This document shows positions 24 through 47,819 of a stretch of DNA of 64,000 nucleotides, one piece after another. Both the position numbers and the translations under genes were made by a program. The DNA is taken from the NCBI GenBank assembly GCA_943354165.1, contig CALRBH010000003.1:5149-69148 (forward strand), written 5' to 3'. The notes under the pieces were generated by a model. That model had not been told where the DNA came from and made no database searches. It was given only the letters and a program-made list of their open reading frames with translations. This stretch comes from Candidatus Uhrbacteria bacterium RIFOXYB12_FULL_58_10 (GTDB lineage Bacteria; Patescibacteriota; Patescibacteriia; UBA9934; GWF2-40-263). Position 1 is the first letter of the stretch. Each line of letters starts with the position of its first letter.

Positions 24-1142
24 ATGAAAGCGCCCCTCATTTTTGTTTTGTTTTCGCTTGTCCTGCTCGGAGCCGGTTGCGCTCCATCGTCGCCGTTCCC
101 TGAGCCGATGGCGATCACTCCCGAGCCCACGCACGCCGAACCTCTCCATCTCCCCACGCCGGAAGAGGTGCGTGGAATCTATTGGACCGGCCAAACGGCC
201 GGAACCAAGCGGGCGGATGAGCTCCTTGCGTACATGACGCAGACCGGTCTGAATGCGGCCGTCATCGATCTCAAGATGGACAACGGCCAGCTGGCATTCG
301 CTCCCAATGACGTTTCGCTCGCTCCCTATGCGATGGCAAAACCGGCGATCAAGGACCTTGAGGCGCTTCTCCTTAACTTAAAGGCGCAGGGGATTTATCG
401 CATCGCAAGAATTGCCGTCATGCGCGATTCTGCGTATGCGGCCATTCATCCGGACCTTGCCTTTCATTACGCGGGCGGTTCGCTGTGGCGCGACAACACG
501 GGGGCGGCCTGGGTGGATCCTGCGGCCGCGGACGTGGCGGAATACGCCGTCGCCTTGGGGAAGGAAGCCTATGCGCGCGGGTTCGACGAGGTGCAGTTCG
601 ACTACGTCCGGTTTGCTTCCGACGGAAAGCTCTCTTCCATCCGCTATCCTGTCTATGACGGGAAGAAGACGAAGGTTGCGGTGATGCAGGAGTTTTTCAA
701 GACCGTCGGAGGTGCGATGAAGGCGGACAAGATCCCCGTCTCGTTCGACGTCTTCGGCATGACGTACGAAACGAATGATGATTTCAACATCGGTCAGCGT
801 CTCATCGATGTCTATCCGGAAGCCGATTGGGTTTCGCCGATGACCTATCCATCGCACTATGCAAACGGATTTATGGGGTACAAGAATCCCGCCCTATTTC
901 CTTACGAGGTCCCAAAACATTCATTCGACTCCGGTGCGGCGATCCTCTTAAAAGAACTGGGGATTCCGGAATCGGAAAGCCGTTCGCATACGCGCCCTTG
1001 GATCCAAGACTTCGACATTGGTGCCATCTATACCGCCGCGCGCATCGAGGCACAGATCAAAGCGGTACGGGACGCGGGGGCATCAGGCTGGATGATTTGG
1101 AATGCGCGCAACGTGTACGAGCCGGCAAGGTACGTTCCGTAG
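24..1142 (+). CDS. Secreted lipoprotein with glycoside-hydrolase-like TIM-barrel domain (DUF4015/GH-like)
   Basis: 372-aa ORF with ATG start. N-terminal signal peptide with lipobox LLGAGC. Body resembles DUF4015/glycosyl hydrolase-like family proteins. Confidence 0.55.
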   Translation: MKAPLIFVLFSLVLLGAGCAPSSPFPEPMAITPEPTHAEPLHLPTPEEVRGIYWTGQTAGTKRADELLAYMTQTGLNAAVIDLKMDNGQLAFAPNDVSLAPYAMAKPAIKDLEALLLNLKAQGIYRIARIAVMRDSAYAAIHPDLAFHYAGGSLWRDNTGAAWVDPAAADVAEYAVALGKEAYARGFDEVQFDYVRFASDGKLSSIRYPVYDGKKTKVAVMQEFFKTVGGAMKADKIPVSFDVFGMTYETNDDFNIGQRLIDVYPEADWVSPMTYPSHYANGFMGYKNPALFPYEVPKHSFDSGAAILLKELGIPESESRSHTRPWIQDFDIGAIYTAARIEAQIKAVRDAGASGWMIWNARNVYEPARYVP

Positions 1143-1155
1143 TATAATACCCCCC

Positions 1156-2553
1156 ATGCCCCGTCTTCTTACTGAGCAGACGTTTTATCAGTACCTAAAA
1201 TGCCCGCATTGGGTCTATTTTGACGCGCATGCGGATGCGAAGAACCCACACGATCCGCTGCTTGCGGAGCTCGTGAACGAAGGGCTTATTGAGGAAAAAC
1301 AGCGTGCGCTTCTCGCGCACAAGCCCGACCTCGCCGAGGTTATGGCGGAGGATCCAGAGTCAGCCTTCAAGCAAACCCTCGCATTCATGCGCGAGGGGAG
1401 AGAGACTATTTATCGCGGCGTGCTCATTCATGGGCACTGGGTTGGCCATCCCGACGTGCTCGAGCGCGTAGAGGGGGCGTCGCATCTTGGCGGCTGGTAC
1501 TACGTAGCCGCGGATATCAAGCGCATGCGCGACGTGCGCGACGAGTATAAGTTTCAGGGCTGCTTCTATGCCGAACTGCTCCAACGCGTGCAGGGAATAA
1601 AGCCGTACCGTGGATACGTGATCACGCCGGATAACGAAGCGATCCCGTATGAGATCGAGACGTTCGAAGCGGAGTTTCGTCTGACGCTCGACGAGATTGA
1701 ACGCATTCTTGCGGGTCAGAAGCCGCCACATTTTTCCACGTCCGGGTGCAAGCAGTCTCCGTGGTTTATGGAGTGCCGTGGGGAATCACTCGCGTGCAAC
1801 GACATTTCGCTTTTGAATCGCGTGTGGCGTGAGGAAGTGGCGCGGCTTCAGGAGGCGGGGATCAAAACGATCGACGACGTTGCCAAGCGTTCCATCGTGG
1901 ATCTCGAAAATAAATGTCCGGACCTGCGTCCTGACAGATTGCTCACCATCCGTGATCAAGCCGTCGCCATTCGTGACGGAAAACACACCATCAAGGGCCG
2001 CATTGAATTTCCAAAGGCAAACGTCGAGCTCTACTTCGACATCGAAAGCGACCCGCTGCGCGACTTCGATTACCTGTACGGCTTCCTCATTTGCGAACGC
2101 GGAAAGGAAACGTACCAATCGATCTTCGCCAAGGACGAAGCCGGCCTCGAGCAGGCCTGGCGCGAGATCTGCACGCTCCTCGAGTCGTATCACGACGCGC
2201 CCATTTATCATTATGGCTCCTTTGAGGTCGATGTCCTGAAGAAGCTCATCAAGAAATTCGGTTCGTCTTCCATCGTCCGAGAGGTCGTGGAGCGGAACCT
2301 CATCGATGTAAACCAATCGCTGCGTCCGGTGGTGATCTTCCCATTGTCGTTTTATTCCCTGAAAGACATTGCGGCTTATCTGGGGTTCAAGTGGCGAAGC
2401 GATGACGCCTCGGGGGCGAACTCGGTCGTATGGTTTGAAAATTACCTCGTCAAGAAGGATCCGGAACTCAAGCGCAAGATCGTTGAGTATAATGAGGATG
2501 ATGTGCGTGCGACCAAGCTCGTGAAGGATTGGCTCGTAAAAAACGCCGTATGA
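1156..2553 (+). CDS. RecB-family (Cas4-like) nuclease, TM0106-type
   Basis: N-terminal QYLKCPHWVYFD motif and C-terminal Cys cluster typical of the TM0106 RecB-like nuclease family. RNase-H-like C-terminal YFDIESDPL motif. ATG at 1156 follows the upstream stop. Confidence 0.6.
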   Translation: MPRLLTEQTFYQYLKCPHWVYFDAHADAKNPHDPLLAELVNEGLIEEKQRALLAHKPDLAEVMAEDPESAFKQTLAFMREGRETIYRGVLIHGHWVGHPDVLERVEGASHLGGWYYVAADIKRMRDVRDEYKFQGCFYAELLQRVQGIKPYRGYVITPDNEAIPYEIETFEAEFRLTLDEIERILAGQKPPHFSTSGCKQSPWFMECRGESLACNDISLLNRVWREEVARLQEAGIKTIDDVAKRSIVDLENKCPDLRPDRLLTIRDQAVAIRDGKHTIKGRIEFPKANVELYFDIESDPLRDFDYLYGFLICERGKETYQSIFAKDEAGLEQAWREICTLLESYHDAPIYHYGSFEVDVLKKLIKKFGSSSIVREVVERNLIDVNQSLRPVVIFPLSFYSLKDIAAYLGFKWRSDDASGANSVVWFENYLVKKDPELKRKIVEYNEDDVRATKLVKDWLVKNAV

Positions 2554-2975: not shown

Positions 2976-3786
2976 TAAAATTTGGCTGGTTGTCCCGGTC
3001 ATTATTGCTGTTTGCGTTATCGGCTGGATGAAGCGCGGAGCTTTGATCGATGCGGCCAATGAAGCGGCGAAAACACCACTTCCCCCCGCGGTGAGTTTTG
3101 AGGAGGTCAAAAATCCTCCTCCGATTTCTGTCCCCGTTCCAACTCCACCTCCACCTCCAACTCCTGCTCCAGCCCCAACACCTGCTCCTACGCCCACTCC
3201 TACGCCCGCTCTTCCATCCGAAATCAACCTTGCGGTTCCATTTATCGTCCAAGCCCCGTTCGCCAACTGGGATGAAACCCATGAGGAAACCTGCGAGGAA
3301 GCGTCCGTATACATGGTCGCTCTCTACTACAAGGGCGTGAAGCCGGGTGCGACGAGCGAACAGGCGGCGGAAGACGAACTCCAGAAACTTGTGAAGCTGC
3401 AGGAATCGCTGTTTGGATATTTTGAGGACACGACAGCGAGGGAAACGGCCTTGTTTGCAAAACGACAGTACGCCCTCACGTCACGTCTTCTTGTTGACCC
3501 GACGCTTGAGGAGATCAAGAAGGAGCTTGCCGCTGGGAGGCCTGTCATCGTGCCGGCCGCAGGACAAGAGCTTGGGAATCCGTACTTCACGCCACCCGGC
3601 CCCATCTATCACATGATTGTTCTGCGCGGGTATACCAAGGACGGATTCATTACAAACGATCCAGGGACAAGACGCGGGGAAGGGTTCGTCTACTCCTTCG
3701 ACACCGTCATGAATGCCATTCACGACTGGAATGCGGAGGATATTCAGAAGGGAGGAAGGGTGGTGATCGTTCTAGAAAAGAAATAG
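2953..3786 (+). CDS. Membrane-anchored C39-like peptidase domain protein with Pro/Thr-rich linker
   Basis: Signal-anchor helix, PTPAP-rich linker, then a VQAPFANWDETHEETCEEAS motif resembling Peptidase_C39_2-like domains. Confidence 0.5.
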   Translation: MRRNRSVNKIWLVVPVIIAVCVIGWMKRGALIDAANEAAKTPLPPAVSFEEVKNPPPISVPVPTPPPPPTPAPAPTPAPTPTPTPALPSEINLAVPFIVQAPFANWDETHEETCEEASVYMVALYYKGVKPGATSEQAAEDELQKLVKLQESLFGYFEDTTARETALFAKRQYALTSRLLVDPTLEEIKKELAAGRPVIVPAAGQELGNPYFTPPGPIYHMIVLRGYTKDGFITNDPGTRRGEGFVYSFDTVMNAIHDWNAEDIQKGGRVVIVLEKK

Positions 3787-24255: not shown

Positions 24256-24333
24256 ATAGTAGAAAGTAGTTAGTAGTTAGTAGGGTTTCCTACGAATTAT
24301 CGTCTACTATCTACTAACTACTATCTACTAACT
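24253..24333. repeat. AGTAGWW-heptamer palindromic element, copy 4
   Basis: Left arm 24253-24283 starts on the TAG stop. Right-arm 30-mer 24304-24333 is identical to copies 2 and 6. The next gene starts at 24335. Confidence 0.85.
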
Positions 24334-24334
24334 C

Positions 24335-25120
24335 GTGATCCAACGTATGGACGAACTCCTCAGACATCTCATGCACCTCGGCCTCTCCGAAAAGGAAGCG
24401 GCCGTGTACGTTTCCGCGCTTGAACTCGGTCCTTCCACCGTTCAGGACATTTCGCATAAGGCCAAGGTGAACCGCGCCACCACATACGTGATGATCGAGT
24501 CGCTCGTCGGCCGCGGGCTCATGTCGAGTTTTATAAAAGGAAAGAAGCGGTATTTTTCCGCAGAGTCGCCGGACCGACTTTCCTCGCTCCTGCGTTCCGA
24601 GAAACAGGTGATCATCGAGAAGGAAGACGAACTGCAGAAAGCCCTCCCTATGCTGATGGCCCTTTTCAACGTGGAAGGAGCCAAGCCGCAGATCCGCTAT
24701 CTCGAAGGGCTCGAGGGGAAGGCGAGCGTGCGGGAAATTTTTCTTGGGCTGAAGGGGGAGTACGTCCAAATCGTTCCGCTTGACGACGTTCAGCAGAGGC
24801 CAGAAATCATGGAGACTCGTCCTAAACATATCGCGGACGTTGAGGCACAAGGAGCGTTTCATCGCGCGATTCTTGTGACAAGCGAGCAAGCCGCGGCAAA
24901 TCTCCCGCGCGTAAAAAATGGAGAGGTGCGTTATCTTCCTCCGGACAAGTTCCCTTTGCATGCCGAAATTACCGTCCGTGAAAATCACGTCTTCCTGTTT
25001 TCGTTCAAGTCGGCCACGCTTTCCATCATCATCGTCAGTAAGGAAATTGCGGACGCGGTTCGCATCATGTTTGATCTTGCCTGGCAGGGAGCGTCGGAAT
25101 ATCCCGTTCACAAGGTATAA
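24335..25120 (+). CDS. TrmB-family transcriptional regulator
   Basis: GTG at 24335 (or ATG 24347). N-terminal wHTH (LSEKEAAVYVSALELGPSTVQDISHKAKVNRATTYVMIESL) typical of TrmB. 261 aa. Confidence 0.7.
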   Translation: MIQRMDELLRHLMHLGLSEKEAAVYVSALELGPSTVQDISHKAKVNRATTYVMIESLVGRGLMSSFIKGKKRYFSAESPDRLSSLLRSEKQVIIEKEDELQKALPMLMALFNVEGAKPQIRYLEGLEGKASVREIFLGLKGEYVQIVPLDDVQQRPEIMETRPKHIADVEAQGAFHRAILVTSEQAAANLPRVKNGEVRYLPPDKFPLHAEITVRENHVFLFSFKSATLSIIIVSKEIADAVRIMFDLAWQGASEYPVHKV

Positions 25121-25124
25121 AAAA

Positions 25125-25340
25125 ATACGGATTCCTTGAGGGAATCCGCGTGCAGTCGGGAGCGGTCGTAGCACTAACCACCTTCGCCAGGGGACATCGC
25201 CTGTGTCAGGAGCCGATGGTGCCTCCGGACGGTCAGAGGGGTCATCGGACGGCGTTCCTGGTCGGTTTTCTTCATGGTGCTGCTCGTATTGTTCGTCGAG
25301 CCCGGATAGCCGACGGCCGCCACGCGTTGTGAGCGACTGC
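25125..25340 (-). ncRNA. Candidate small transcript (sRNA or 33-aa peptide mRNA), bounded by a promoter and an intrinsic terminator
   Basis: Minus-strand terminator hairpin cggattccctcaaggaatccg plus T7 run at 25128-25149. Unit length ~200 nt. Contains only a weak 33-codon ORF without RBS. Confidence 0.3.
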
Positions 25341-25342
25341 AT

Positions 25343-25371
25343 AATCTAGCAAAGGATTCCAATAATGTCAA
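25343..25371 (-). promoter_or_regulatory. Candidate sigma70-like promoter (minus strand: TTGACA-17-TAGATT)
   Basis: Read on the reverse complement as ccTTGACAttattggaatcctttgcTAGATTatg. Lies at the edge of an unusually AT-rich ~90-bp divergent region. Confidence 0.4.
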
Positions 25372-25443
25372 GGGAAACTGACAAGGAAATACATATATAA
25401 TACTAAGGAAATCTGTAAGAAGCTAAATATCGACCATGGACTC

Positions 25444-25472
25444 TTGACAGTTTCCGGCGATTGGGATAGTCT
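25444..25472 (+). promoter_or_regulatory. Candidate sigma70-like promoter (TTGACA-17-TAGTCT)
   Basis: ctTTGACAgtttccggcgattgggaTAGTCT. Divergent from the minus-strand promoter across the AT-rich spacer. Confidence 0.4.
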
Positions 25473-25479
25473 AGCGGGT

Positions 25480-25692
25480 CCCTCTGGAACTCCAGGGGAC
25501 ACCCGCGGGCTCATCCTGCGGTTAAGTCCTCCTTCGCTCCTGAAAGGGAGCTTCGGAGGATCCGCCATTTCTCTATTTGGGGAGTGGTGGGCGGACTAGT
25601 GCCGAGGAGAGAGTATCGGCATAAATCCCATCTTGTCGTGCCGGTTAAAGACCCGTTGTGAATTCAAACCTCACTCCGGGTCTTTTTCGTTT
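25480..25692 (+). ncRNA. Candidate structured ncRNA (~210 nt) with 3' intrinsic terminator
   Basis: No ATG-initiated ORF. Stable stems (gcgggt...acccgc; tcctcc ttc gctcc-tgaaa-gggagc ttc ggagga). Terminator agacccg...cgggtct plus T5 at 25650-25692. Class not identified. Confidence 0.4.
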
Positions 25693-25764
25693 TCCCCTTA
25701 AATGAAAACCGACCCCAGAGATTGGGGTCGGGCGGAACACTGGGAGAACCCAGTTTCCTGCGAG

Positions 25765-26301
25765 CTACTTCGTGAAGAACTCCTCCACGTCTTCGGTCGA
25801 GACGATGTCGACCATCGTTGCACGGCTGAGCGCCTTGGCGAAGATGGGCGAGCCCTTCTTTTTCAAGATGCGCAGGTGACGCATGGCTGCGTTGTTCAGT
25901 GCCTCGGGGCGGAAGTCGGCCGACACCAGGAGCACAGGCTCCTTGGTCTCGTCCGAGAGTCGGATGAGGACGTCAAAGCGCTCGTCCTTTTTGTTCAAGT
26001 CGACCCAGAAGGCGGCGGTCTTCAAACGGAGCCTGATTTCCTCCGCGGAGTCGAGTTCGAGGTCACGGAGCAACATCCAACACTGGTGGAGCATCCCCTG
26101 AAATTTGAGCGGGACGCCGTTCGGGATGTCGGGGTGCAGGATGTTTTTCGCGAGCTTCTGCTTCGGCGTCGACGCGGGCTTTTGGGCTTGCGTCTCGAAC
26201 TTCGGCTGCGGCGTGACTGCTTCGGCGGCGCGGATCTCGGCTTGCAGCTCGAGGTTGCTTTCGAACTGAGCGAGGGGGTTCGGGACAGTGGTCGTGGTCA
26301 T
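25765..26301 (-). CDS. Hypothetical protein
   Basis: 178 aa. ATG preceded by aggagag RBS 8 nt upstream. No recognisable family. Confidence 0.55.
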   Translation of the reverse strand: MTTTTVPNPLAQFESNLELQAEIRAAEAVTPQPKFETQAQKPASTPKQKLAKNILHPDIPNGVPLKFQGMLHQCWMLLRDLELDSAEEIRLRLKTAAFWVDLNKKDERFDVLIRLSDETKEPVLLVSADFRPEALNNAAMRHLRILKKKGSPIFAKALSRATMVDIVSTEDVEEFFTK

Positions 26302-26454
26302 GGGACTCTCCTGTATGTGGTCGCATTACTGCGACGTTCTGGATGGCTCATCGGGATGATGGCCAGGTCTGGACGGACGAGCGTGAGCTCATCGTTCCGG
26401 ATCCGGCACGCATCGTTTTTAGGCGATGCGGCGAGAAGAGTTGGTTGTGAGGTT

Positions 26455-26844
26455 CTAGTTGCTCAGGTCGATGCCGACGTTGGCGAAGTCCTGGTAGGCG
26501 CGCGGCAGGTACTCTTGGTACTCGGGCCGTTCGCCTTTCTTGAGGACGCGGGCGATGGCTTCGCGCAGCGTCTCCGGCTTGCCGGTGACGTCGATGCGGA
26601 GCGGGTCGGTGAGGAAGCCGTTGGCCCAGAGGAAGAGCTGCATGTAGCGCTCGTCCACTTTGGCTTGTTCTTCGACGAAGCGGTTGGCGACGTCCTGGAA
26701 CAGGCGGTCGGCAGTCCACTCGCAGAGGTCGGCGACGTGGATTTTCACGGCGATCGCGTAGATCGCGTTGGCGAAGTCTTCGTCGGTGTCGGGGGGCAAG
26801 TTGATGTTGGGTTCGGTGTGGGAAACGAGCTGGAGCATCATCAT
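26455..26844 (-). CDS. Hypothetical protein
   Basis: The C-terminal ~130 aa of the 210-aa ORF look protein-like. Start taken at MMM (26844); the upstream 80 codons look like non-coding read-through. Confidence 0.45.
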   Translation of the reverse strand: MMMLQLVSHTEPNINLPPDTDEDFANAIYAIAVKIHVADLCEWTADRLFQDVANRFVEEQAKVDERYMQLFLWANGFLTDPLRIDVTGKPETLREAIARVLKKGERPEYQEYLPRAYQDFANVGIDLSN

Positions 26845-27414
26845 GTGGAACCTGCTGGGGAACAGTCGCCGGGCGACCGCCGTGGGCACTTTTAGAGTGG
26901 CCAGGTATGAAGGGAAGAGATGTTCTTCCACTCGTATCTGGCCTCTCACTACACGTTGGCAGTGAGAGGCAGAGAAGCACGTGTTCAGCGCTTCTGTTGG
27001 GAACGTTCTGTGTCTGCATGGAGTACTCGGTGGTGATGACCAGTGGGCGCGGTCGGTGTTTGGAAATGGTTGTTGCCCAGCAAGCAATCAACAAGACGTT
27101 CTTATCAATTCTTTGCTAGGCCTGTGTCTCACGACAGCGGGCGAGTTTGGAAGGAAGGATTAGTATGCGATCTTCTTCTGCTGAGGCGGGAGTGCCTCAG
27201 CCTTCTTAATCGCGAGCGGTGTTTCGTACGTTTCAGGTTCGGGAATCTGGAGGGTGATGGCACATTGACCTGGGCAAGCCCTGGTGTGCGCCGTGGACAT
27301 CAGGCATATGGAGCGAGCGAGCCGAAGCCCGGTCAATCCATTTGATGTCCGTCCACTACGACCGAGGCCGCAATGGGGTTCACTCTCTCCCCCAGATTTC
27401 CGAACCCAAATTTG

Positions 27415-27593
27415 GTACAAAAAACCGACGGATGTCTGCACTCGTTTCTGTTAATTGAGTACAGGCATCCGCCGGCTCAGAATCACGTTTAGGTACGATG
27501 ATTCTAGGGATCGGTGAAAAACCAGATACTCTCTCCCGTTATGAAATTGTTTAGCTTCGGGCTTCGTAGTCCCTCGGCCGATGAACATTTCAA
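27415..27593 (-). ncRNA. Candidate sRNA or terminated leader (~180 nt) ending in an intrinsic terminator
   Basis: Minus-strand hairpin cggatgcctgtactc...gagtgcagacatccg followed by T6 (27415-27470). Contains only a 45-codon ORF with no RBS. No riboswitch class recognised. Confidence 0.35.
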
Positions 27594-27599
27594 CGCGCT

Positions 27600-27629
27600 A
27601 TTTATACCACATTTTGGCAACTTTGTCAA
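27600..27629 (-). promoter_or_regulatory. Candidate strong sigma70-like promoter (minus strand: TTGACA-17-TATAAA)
   Basis: Reverse complement reads gctcTTGACAaagttgccaaaatgtggTATAAAtagc. Confidence 0.45.
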
Positions 27630-27677
27630 GAGCTAAGCGAAGTAATTTGGCTGGGTTGGGGCTTGGAAAGTGTACGC

Positions 27678-27755
27678 AGTTAGTAGTCAGTAGAAAGTAG
27701 ATAGTAGAGTTATCCTTCAAAAACTACTAACTACTTTCTACTAACTACTAACTAA
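27678..27755. repeat. AGTAGWW-heptamer palindromic element, copy 5
   Basis: Left arm 27678-27707 (agttagtagtcagtagaaagtagatagtag), right arm 27724-27755. Lies upstream of holB (ATG 27779). This is the only copy not preceded by a plus-strand CDS. Confidence 0.85.
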
Positions 27756-47174: not shown

Positions 47175-47678
47175 ATGCACCATCCGCAGAAAAACTACGC
47201 ATTTATCGACAGTCAGAATTTGAACCTTGCGATTCGCGCACAAGGATGGAAGTTGGATTTCAGACGTTTTCGAGTACATATTCAAGACAAGTATCACGTT
47301 CAAAAGGCCTATTTGTTTATTGGGTATATCAACGGGAATCAATCGCTATATACAATGCTGCAAGATGCCGGCTTCACTTGCATATTCAAACCGACATTAC
47401 AGTATAAGGACGGAACAACGAAAGGGAATTGTGACGCTGAGCTCGTTCTCTGGTCGATGATTGATTTTAAGGAATATGAGAAAGCAGTGATCGTTTCAGG
47501 AGATGGTGATTTCAACTGTTTGGTCGACTATCTCCTCAAGGAGAAAAAACTCGAGTGTGTATTGATCCCGGATCAACATCGATTTTCTGGCCTGCTGAAA
47601 TTTAAGAAGTTTCGGCCGTACCTTCGGTACATGAATGATTTGCGCGAGAGGCTTTCTACAAAAGAAAGGGCCCCGTAA
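47175..47678 (+). CDS. NYN-domain (LabA-like) putative ribonuclease
   Basis: YAFIDSQNL...VSGDGDF motifs of NYN/PIN-like nucleases. Locally AT-rich. Confidence 0.65.
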   Translation: MHHPQKNYAFIDSQNLNLAIRAQGWKLDFRRFRVHIQDKYHVQKAYLFIGYINGNQSLYTMLQDAGFTCIFKPTLQYKDGTTKGNCDAELVLWSMIDFKEYEKAVIVSGDGDFNCLVDYLLKEKKLECVLIPDQHRFSGLLKFKKFRPYLRYMNDLRERLSTKERAP

Positions 47679-47819
47679 GGACGAGACCTTACAGGGCTTG
47701 CTTTCCGTTGGTGATGAGGAAAGACTATCAGCATTTCCAGTTCCTGTCAACTTGACCCATCAACCAGTCACCCATACTGTATCTATCGTTTAGCCCCCTT
47801 ACCACCCTTACCACCCTGT

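Follow-up and report, generated by a model that had tools for sequence, protein, structure and literature searches.

A divergent promoter pair downstream of a trmB-family gene in Candidatus Uhrbacteria: a candidate new small RNA family beside a probable short mRNA

What is transcribed from the 644-bp gap between a trmB-family regulator gene (24335-25120, plus strand) and the convergent gene for a 178-residue protein (25765-26301, minus strand) in Candidatus Uhrbacteria bacterium RIFOXYB12_FULL_58_10? The gap lies in a 64,000-nucleotide (nt) stretch of contig CALRBH010000003.1 (positions 5,149 to 69,148; assembly GCA_943354165.1), here called the window, to which coordinates refer unless a related locus is named. 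An earlier note, made from the letters alone, had read it as two candidate small RNAs (sRNAs) diverging from an AT-rich spacer, each with its own promoter and terminator. To our knowledge almost nothing is known about RNA-based regulation in bacteria of the Candidate Phyla Radiation (CPR), which are not culturable on their own and whose genomes are very small. We consider it likely that the locus is a conserved Uhrbacteria module, with a new sRNA family on the plus strand and a minus-strand transcript that is most likely a short mRNA with a leader.

The product of the gene at 24335-25120 matches the Pfam TrmB model (E = 6.6e-13), and related loci, given L numbers, were gathered with TrmB homologues; nearly all are labelled Candidatus Uhrbacteria or Patescibacteria. 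L001 is a contig identical to the window and comes from run SRR7054680, L082 (TrmB 77% identical) is the closest long-contig relative, and L086 (67%) holds the closest homologue of the window sRNA. The gene order DUF4012-mreB-GT4 (glycosyltransferase)-trmB ... holB is common to the window and the related loci. Since direct searches with both units (blastn and nhmmer against 80 Uhrbacteria loci) matched only the identical contig L001, homologues were recognised through motif and promoter anatomy. Family members were compared module by module, a global MAFFT alignment of the short members being unusable.

What the related loci share downstream of trmB is, as architecture, a divergent promoter pair. 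Its parts in the window are as follows.

25349..25443, unstranded: AT-rich control region, with 72 nt between the -35 boxes (25372 to 25443) and a G+C fraction of 0.34
25343..25371, minus strand: minus-unit promoter TTGACA-17-TAGATT, 10 of 12 matches in a consensus scan, with a strong promoter at the equivalent site in most related loci
25444..25472, plus strand: plus-unit promoter TTGACA-17-TAGTCT, read in the sequence and kept in L082, L086, L002 and about 20 more loci

The spacer is as AT-rich as had been claimed (G+C fraction 0.34 in 25350-25449, against 0.55-0.65 on either side), and both promoters named in the earlier note were found again, the minus one by the consensus scan and the plus one by reading the sequence; the scan missed the latter because its -10 box matches TATAAT at only three of six positions. 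The pattern TTGACA-N16-18-TAGNNT occurs three times in the 64 kb, both strands counted, against 0.08 expected from shuffles, and two of the three are this divergent pair. The two -35 boxes lie 69-72 nt apart in 16 of the 23 related loci having both units, and exactly 72 nt apart in L082, L002, L012 and L042 as in the window. We conclude that the divergent-pair architecture is real and conserved. It would consist of two strong sigma-70-type promoters set back to back, some 72 nt apart, just downstream of the gene for a TrmB-family regulator. Inside the fixed-length spacer, overlapping the minus -35 box, lie inverted TGTCA/TGACA pentamers (TGTCAA-N7-TGACA, 25366-25383), the second TGACA of which is kept in L082, L002, L003, L022 and L060. 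This pair may be an operator, for which the adjacent trmB-family regulator is the obvious candidate binder.

From the plus promoter a rightward transcript of about 215 nt (about 25478-25692) would arise as a stand-alone structured non-coding RNA, with the following parts, all on the plus strand.

25478..25500: P1, the 5'-terminal hairpin GUCCC-U-CUGG AACU CCAG-GGGAC, by folding and covariation
25503..25521: P2, hairpin CCGCGGG CUCAU CCUGCGG, by folding; CCACAGG CUCAU CCUGUGG in L086, a G-C to A-U double change
25526..25590: two extra hairpins (25526-25561 and 25562-25590) of the predicted fold
25599..25622: hairpin GUGCCGA / U(A)UCGGCAU, by folding, with the GA motif GGAGAGAGU (25606-25614) in its loop
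25617..25643: P3, an alternative hairpin (CGGCA ... UGCCG) of the centroid structure, holding the conserved CUUGUCGUGCC (25632-25642)
25650..25693: sRNA intrinsic terminator, by sequence and folding: stem 25650-25682, T5 at 25683-25687, CG and TTTT

The unit folds at -101 kcal/mol (z = -5.8; none of 200 shuffles folded as well) into a predicted row of six separate hairpins, in agreement with the strong stems described earlier; the clear terminator described with them is likewise present (stem GACCCG...CGGGTC, 25650-25682, then T5). The hairpins at 25526-25590 are absent from L086, and we therefore regard them as a lineage-specific insertion rather than part of the family core. The GA-motif hairpin and P3 compete for the CGGCA segment. 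In both the window and L086, UCGGCAU can pair either with the upstream GUGCCGA, holding the GA motif in a loop of 8-10 nt, or with a downstream GUGCCG, leaving the motif single-stranded and forming P3 as in L012, L003, L006 and L047. The L086 version of the GA-motif hairpin is that of the window minus one A (GUGCCGA-GGAGAGAG-UUCGGCAU), and CUUGUCGUGCC is conserved in L086 (identical), L003, L006, L012 and L047. Downstream, the gene at 25765-26301 is convergent and has its own terminator (25731-25709), which faces that of the sRNA; the plus unit is therefore not an untranslated region (UTR).

About two dozen Uhrbacteria loci were recognised as having a homologue of the sRNA, encoded on the trmB strand a few hundred bases beyond that gene (L002, L003, L005, L006, L012, L018, L022, L023, L026, L036, L037, L039-L042, L044, L045, L047, L052, L060, L063, L082, L086, L087 and L089). 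A MAG that carries the family is, for example, GCA_004297215.1. The family promoter is TTGACA-17-TAnnnT, and in all 17 sequences compared (the window and 16 loci) a 5' GUYC hairpin has its first G at the sixth base past the -10 box, so that the hairpin starts at, or adjoining, the expected transcription start. The core would run, in order, from this hairpin through an accessible RGGAGAGAGU, an optional hairpin (here with CUUGUCGUGCC) and an A-rich stretch to an intrinsic terminator. Every member ends in a hairpin and a T-run, and many, not all, have a further hairpin between the GA motif and the terminator; the shortest member has 50 nt (L063) and the longest 215 nt (the window), and no open reading frame (ORF) is common to the members. 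The plus RNAs of ten relatives fold with z between -1.4 and -6.5, the GA motif being unpaired or in a loop in each. A metagenome scan with the pattern GAGAG-N3-30-CTTGTCGTGCC matched at least 120 loci; among the matches listed, one was a further convincing member (L178), one other passed the filter and the rest were chance-like.

The helices of this family are kept by compensatory change. The third pair of P1 is C-G in eight sequences, U-A in six and U-G in two, and its fifth pair takes four pair types. The arms of P1 pair at an average of -9.5 kcal/mol when cognate and of -4.2 when exchanged between genomes, and the cognate 3' arm ranks among the top four of 16 in every case. For P3, in L082, L002, L087 and L089, 100% of cells are paired and five of eight pairs are changed on both sides, where slid controls reach at most 50%. 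Read by eye, the window and L086 differ by double compensatory changes at two pairs of P1, one of P2 (G-C to A-U) and one of the terminator (A-U to G-C). Of the checks suggested earlier, covariation among homologous loci gave support, from few sequences, for P1 and P3. Judged by its sequence, the plus unit belongs to a genuine sRNA family that is new, absent from Rfam 15 and otherwise of an ordinary kind. The reading of it as an independent promoter-to-terminator non-coding RNA holds, given its homologues, the covariation, the lack of a shared ORF and its separation from the flanking genes.

The minus unit answers differently. Its leftward transcript (about 25337-25120, about 215 nt) would be a short leadered mRNA with a 5' hairpin, a leader of about 60 nt and a short ORF. 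The parts, all on the minus strand, are these.

25316..25337: 5'-terminal hairpin GUCGCUCAC AACGC GUGGCGGC, by folding
25174..25275: ORF of 33 codons, MKKTDQERRPMTPLTVRRHHRLLTQAMSPGEGG and stop, from the ORF list; the in-frame counterpart of a small protein of the relatives
25119..25149: minus-unit intrinsic terminator GCGGATTCCCTCAAGGAATCCGT (25149-25127) followed by T7 (25125-25119), by sequence, scan and folding

The hairpin and T7 that the earlier note placed just past the stop of the trmB-like gene are there, the T7 run overlapping the stop codon of that gene (25118-25120), and so is the 33-codon ORF that it had mentioned (25275-25174). Hairpins of the GUCGC... type, like GUCGCUCAC..., stand at the equivalent offset in L002, L005, L082, L086, L087 and L089. 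A strong minus-strand promoter occupies the corresponding place in nearly every related locus, and in about 35 of them it is followed by a leader, a GGAG-type Shine-Dalgarno sequence, an ATG and an ORF of 34-52 codons that is conserved in sequence. The encoded small protein, whose ORF always lies immediately beyond trmB and antiparallel to it, is charged and rich in Arg rather than hydrophobic, and ends in ...(D/N)Pxx(F/L)xP(H/C)(M/Y)(H/I)C(P/G)xG(G/S)-stop, typically ...P(H/C)MHCPGG(G/S), with the Pro and Cys invariant. No match was found for the small proteins in Pfam or NCBIfam, and a collection of 5.8 billion proteins holds only 13 entries of the family, of which the few named are each called 'hypothetical protein', from Uhrbacteria or the Patescibacteria group. 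Examples are given with the coordinates of their own loci.

L004, about 3420-3560, minus strand: small protein
L012, 3366-3486, minus strand: small protein
L086, about 930-1236, minus strand: small protein

The window ORF is linked to this family only by in-frame codon correspondence with L086 and L082. The alignment with L086 was read by eye; it stays in frame with one codon deleted and one inserted.

L086 protein end: ...L K P H M H C P G - G G, stop (CTC AAG CCG CAC ATG CAT TGC CCT GGT gap GGT GGA TAA)
Window protein end: ...L T Q A M S - P G E G G, stop (CTG ACA CAG GCG ATG TCC gap CCT GGC GAA GGT GGT TAG)
L082 protein end: ...T P I S C P G E G G C, stop

Both the window and L082 ORFs are without the two His, and that of the window, which ends in ...QAMSPGEGG, is also without the Cys. 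It is possible, though doubtful, that both units are non-coding sRNAs, the minus ORF being a dead remnant whose transcript acts as RNA. The loss of the two His and the invariant Cys speaks for this, as do a score of about 0 bits against the family profile, a weak Shine-Dalgarno sequence, and poor conservation of the minus transcribed region with L082 outside the last five codons. Against it, the minus unit folds at the level of shuffles (z = -1.3), and some 35 relatives clearly encode a protein at this place. The indels of the window ORF relative to L086 and L082 are, moreover, whole codons with the stop position kept; a Glu insertion is common to the window and L082; and in the PGEGG codons these two differ at four third positions, every change being synonymous. 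These features suggest that the frame stayed under selection after the His-x-His-Cys loss. The product of the window ORF would be a small protein that is either derived or in decay. We rate a small mRNA for a derived protein above a non-coding remnant, though not by a wide margin, and take the minus transcript to be, most likely, a short mRNA with a leader and not an sRNA. The earlier description of the locus as a pair of candidate sRNAs is therefore retained for the plus unit, a conserved non-coding RNA, and given up for the minus unit, probably an mRNA in view of the ORF of the relatives and the chance-level fold.

For the plus unit the rivals fare worse. We think it very unlikely that the likeness among loci amounts to conserved promoter DNA and generic terminators with no structured RNA family between them. 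The promoter is indeed the best-conserved part at the sequence level, and any promoter-to-terminator unit should close with a terminator hairpin; the pairing of P1, P2 and P3, however, is kept through double changes, and within the transcript the GA 9-mer and CUUGUCGUGCC are preserved in loci that include some whose TrmB is only about 57-60% identical.

Still less probable is a divergent form, overlooked by the Rfam models, of a known RNA (6S, SRP or Y RNA, a riboswitch, an attenuator leader). A strong consensus promoter, a length of about 200 nt and high structural stability would suit such an RNA, and CPR sequences are often divergent, which could hide it from the models. Yet at the gathering score Rfam gave no family in 24900-25900, and with permissive filters and E up to 10 it gave only three chance matches of 14-15 bits there; the four tRNAs were its only matches in the whole window, 20 related loci gave none, and ARAGORN found no tRNA or tmRNA at the locus. 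The earlier remark that no RNA class could be recognised here is borne out by these searches. Further, the unit is a set of tandem hairpins and not one long hairpin with a central bubble, the core is only 50 nt in L063, and no gene in the same orientation follows, the next one being convergent.

A tiny peptide with the GA motif as its Shine-Dalgarno sequence is just as improbable: GGAGAGAG is Shine-Dalgarno-like and an AUG follows it within a few bases in L005 and L036, but no start codon stands at a suitable distance in the window, L082, L012 or L063, the frames downstream are unequal in length, not conserved and run into terminator stems, and most genes of the genome have no Shine-Dalgarno sequence.

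How might an sRNA of this build work? Its GA motif, with the family consensus RGGAGAGAGU, lies in the window within a hairpin loop (25606-25614); as GGAGAGAGT it has three copies in the window where 0.37 would be expected, each of them in an RNA-like unit. It is duplicated in L082, L002, L087, L089 and L022, and L006 has GAAGAGAGAGG, without GGA. Going by its sequence, the sRNA would act in trans through this exposed motif, the likely working site. The motif could bind an RNA-binding protein that recognises AG repeats or pair with CU-rich targets elsewhere in the genome, while the 5' hairpin and terminator would stabilise the RNA. Hfq of Bacillus subtilis binds (AG)3A on its distal face (PMC3287200), and by analogy an Hfq-type protein might bind the exposed AG repeat, a lead only; a literature search on CPR sRNAs and CPR Hfq returned nothing relevant. 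Most window genes have no Shine-Dalgarno sequence, and the 20-30 bases before their starts are often pyrimidine-rich (e.g. 23134, 31787, 33092 and 37307), which makes a Shine-Dalgarno decoy role for the motif less obvious. The small ORFs of the related loci do have GGAG, unlike most window genes.

Several results weigh against this account of the locus. Within the window, the GA region finds its best complementary site deep in an ORF of 673 residues, which is unconvincing. Regulation of the divergent small mRNA by the sRNA was rejected, cognate pairs averaging -22.8 kcal/mol and non-cognate pairs -23.1, and so was pairing at translation starts (on average -6.2 at starts, -6.7 in gene interiors used as controls; p = 0.75). 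No Hfq, CsrA or KhpA was found by tblastn in the 64-kb window or the related loci. The covariation counts come from few sequences, with helices delimited by hand, and the transcription of both units, like the ends of their transcripts, is deduced from the DNA. On the minus side, besides the weak Shine-Dalgarno sequence, the small-protein profile was searched against six-frame translations of the window and L082: the window ORF scores 0.2 bits, where shuffles reach 8.7 bits, so the score is not significant, and the L082 ORF likewise scores about 0 bits against the canonical profile, shuffles reaching 6-9 bits.

The other two occurrences of the GA motif are at a distance of 2 kb, in the following elements of the minus strand.

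RNA about 27596-27426, minus strand: second promoter-to-terminator unit, with promoter TTGACA-17-TATAAA (27630-27602), terminator ccggcggatg...catccgtcggTTTTTT and GA motif GGGAGAGAGT (27537-27528)
27412-27235, minus strand: element of about 180 nt, by folding (z = -7.0), with a closing helix of about 18 bp and a four-way junction at which GGAGAGAGT stands

The second unit has homologues in L029 and L042, and its 25-nt core UCCCUAGAAUCAUCGUACCUAAACG (27510-27486) is 96-100% identical in L004, L008, L013 and L058. For the four-way-junction element the folding z-score is -7.0 when read on the minus strand, as against -4.6 on the plus; its nhmmer homologues are in L029, L050, L042, L039 and L058, with weaker ones in L052 and L006. 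Rfam has no match for either. Both lie upstream of two small minus-strand genes (26455-27087 and 25765-26301), and the element at 27235-27412, which directly follows the second unit and leads into a small operon, may be a leader or riboswitch-like element. All three GA-motif RNA elements are conserved in other Uhrbacteria, and the shared motif hints at a common partner. That GGAGAGAGU is the signature of a CPR-specific post-transcriptional circuit, served by one RNA-binding protein (Hfq-like or new) or by a common CU-rich partner, is a conjecture that we hold to be unlikely. If true, the three elements within 2 kb would form one regulon, and the sRNA would be a decoy or competitor for the leader RNA.

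The products of the two small genes have no match in Pfam. The 178-residue protein is a real and rare one, with no more than three distant homologues among 1.8 billion representatives, the best of them at E = 5e-14. The 210-residue ORF (26455-27087) is, by eye, loosely like a 199-residue ORF at the corresponding upstream position in L042, and its true start is probably further in (MMMLQL...). A giant non-coding RNA over 25700-27640 with spurious ORFs was ruled out by the 178-residue homologues and the L042 ORF, and an inversion of the 25.7-27.6 kb segment by L042 and L087, which share the overall arrangement of the window, with the same order and strands. Two long antisense ORFs, one of 342 residues against trmB (24314-25342, minus strand) and one of 397 residues against the 178- and 210-residue genes (25702-26895, plus strand), resemble GC-rich artefacts and would mislead automatic annotation of the region. 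Between the second-unit promoter and holB, 27676-27755 is an AT-rich, nearly perfect inverted repeat of about 80 bp (tagttagtagaaagtag...ctactttctactgactacta) that yields only spurious miRNA-model matches. The promoter pattern matches a third time at 47750-47722 on the minus strand (TTGACA-17-TAGTCT), where it is followed by about 60 nt ending in a hairpin (GCCCTGTAAGG...CCTTACGGGGC) and a T-rich run; this unit (about 47660-47750, minus strand) may be another small transcript or an attenuator.

With its clear anatomy, conserved address and exposed motif, the sRNA family offers a handle for metatranscriptomics and for finding RNA-binding proteins of CPR bacteria. The small protein of about 40 residues, with its invariant Cys near the C-terminus, marks an annotation gap that deserves filling, since gene calls for it exist in no more than a handful of genomes.

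On present evidence, neither the sRNA nor the small protein is a new kind of biology, and both can be placed beside known systems. A type I toxin-antitoxin system was rejected, the two units being divergent without overlap, the protein charged rather than hydrophobic and the pairing not cognate. 6S RNA is a single long irregular hairpin of about 185 nt with a large central bubble; it was set aside on the six separate hairpins of the plus unit, the members as short as 50 nt and the lack of an Rfam 6S match. A riboswitch or attenuator leader was set aside on the opposite strand of the next gene (25765-26301) and its own terminator (25731-25709).

The minus unit, a promoter-to-terminator transcript of about 215 nt with a short ORF, resembles SgrS/SgrT, RNAIII/hld and small-protein mRNAs mistaken for sRNAs. 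It is set apart from the dual-function RNAs in that a function at the RNA level is not evident, the protein family is unnamed and the window copy is without the His and Cys residues. The sRNA shares with the CsrB/RsmZ sponges GGA-containing purine motifs in loops or single strands, duplicated in some members; it differs in having one or two motifs per RNA, with one in the short members, in being far smaller than CsrB and in the lack of a csrA in the window. No hfq was seen within the 64 kb, and the likeness to Hfq-binding sRNAs is a lead: an exposed AGAGAG upstream of a U-tailed (T5) terminator is what distal- and proximal-face binding would lead one to expect. Many Gram-positive sRNAs typically carry a C/U-rich anti-Shine-Dalgarno seed, whereas the motif here is purine-rich and Shine-Dalgarno-like. 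From the generic trans-acting sRNAs the plus unit differs in belonging to no described family and in its uncultivated CPR host; it is like them in its own promoter, 5' hairpin, exposed motif, intrinsic terminator and lack of an ORF, and in being conserved in synteny while evolving quickly outside its motifs.

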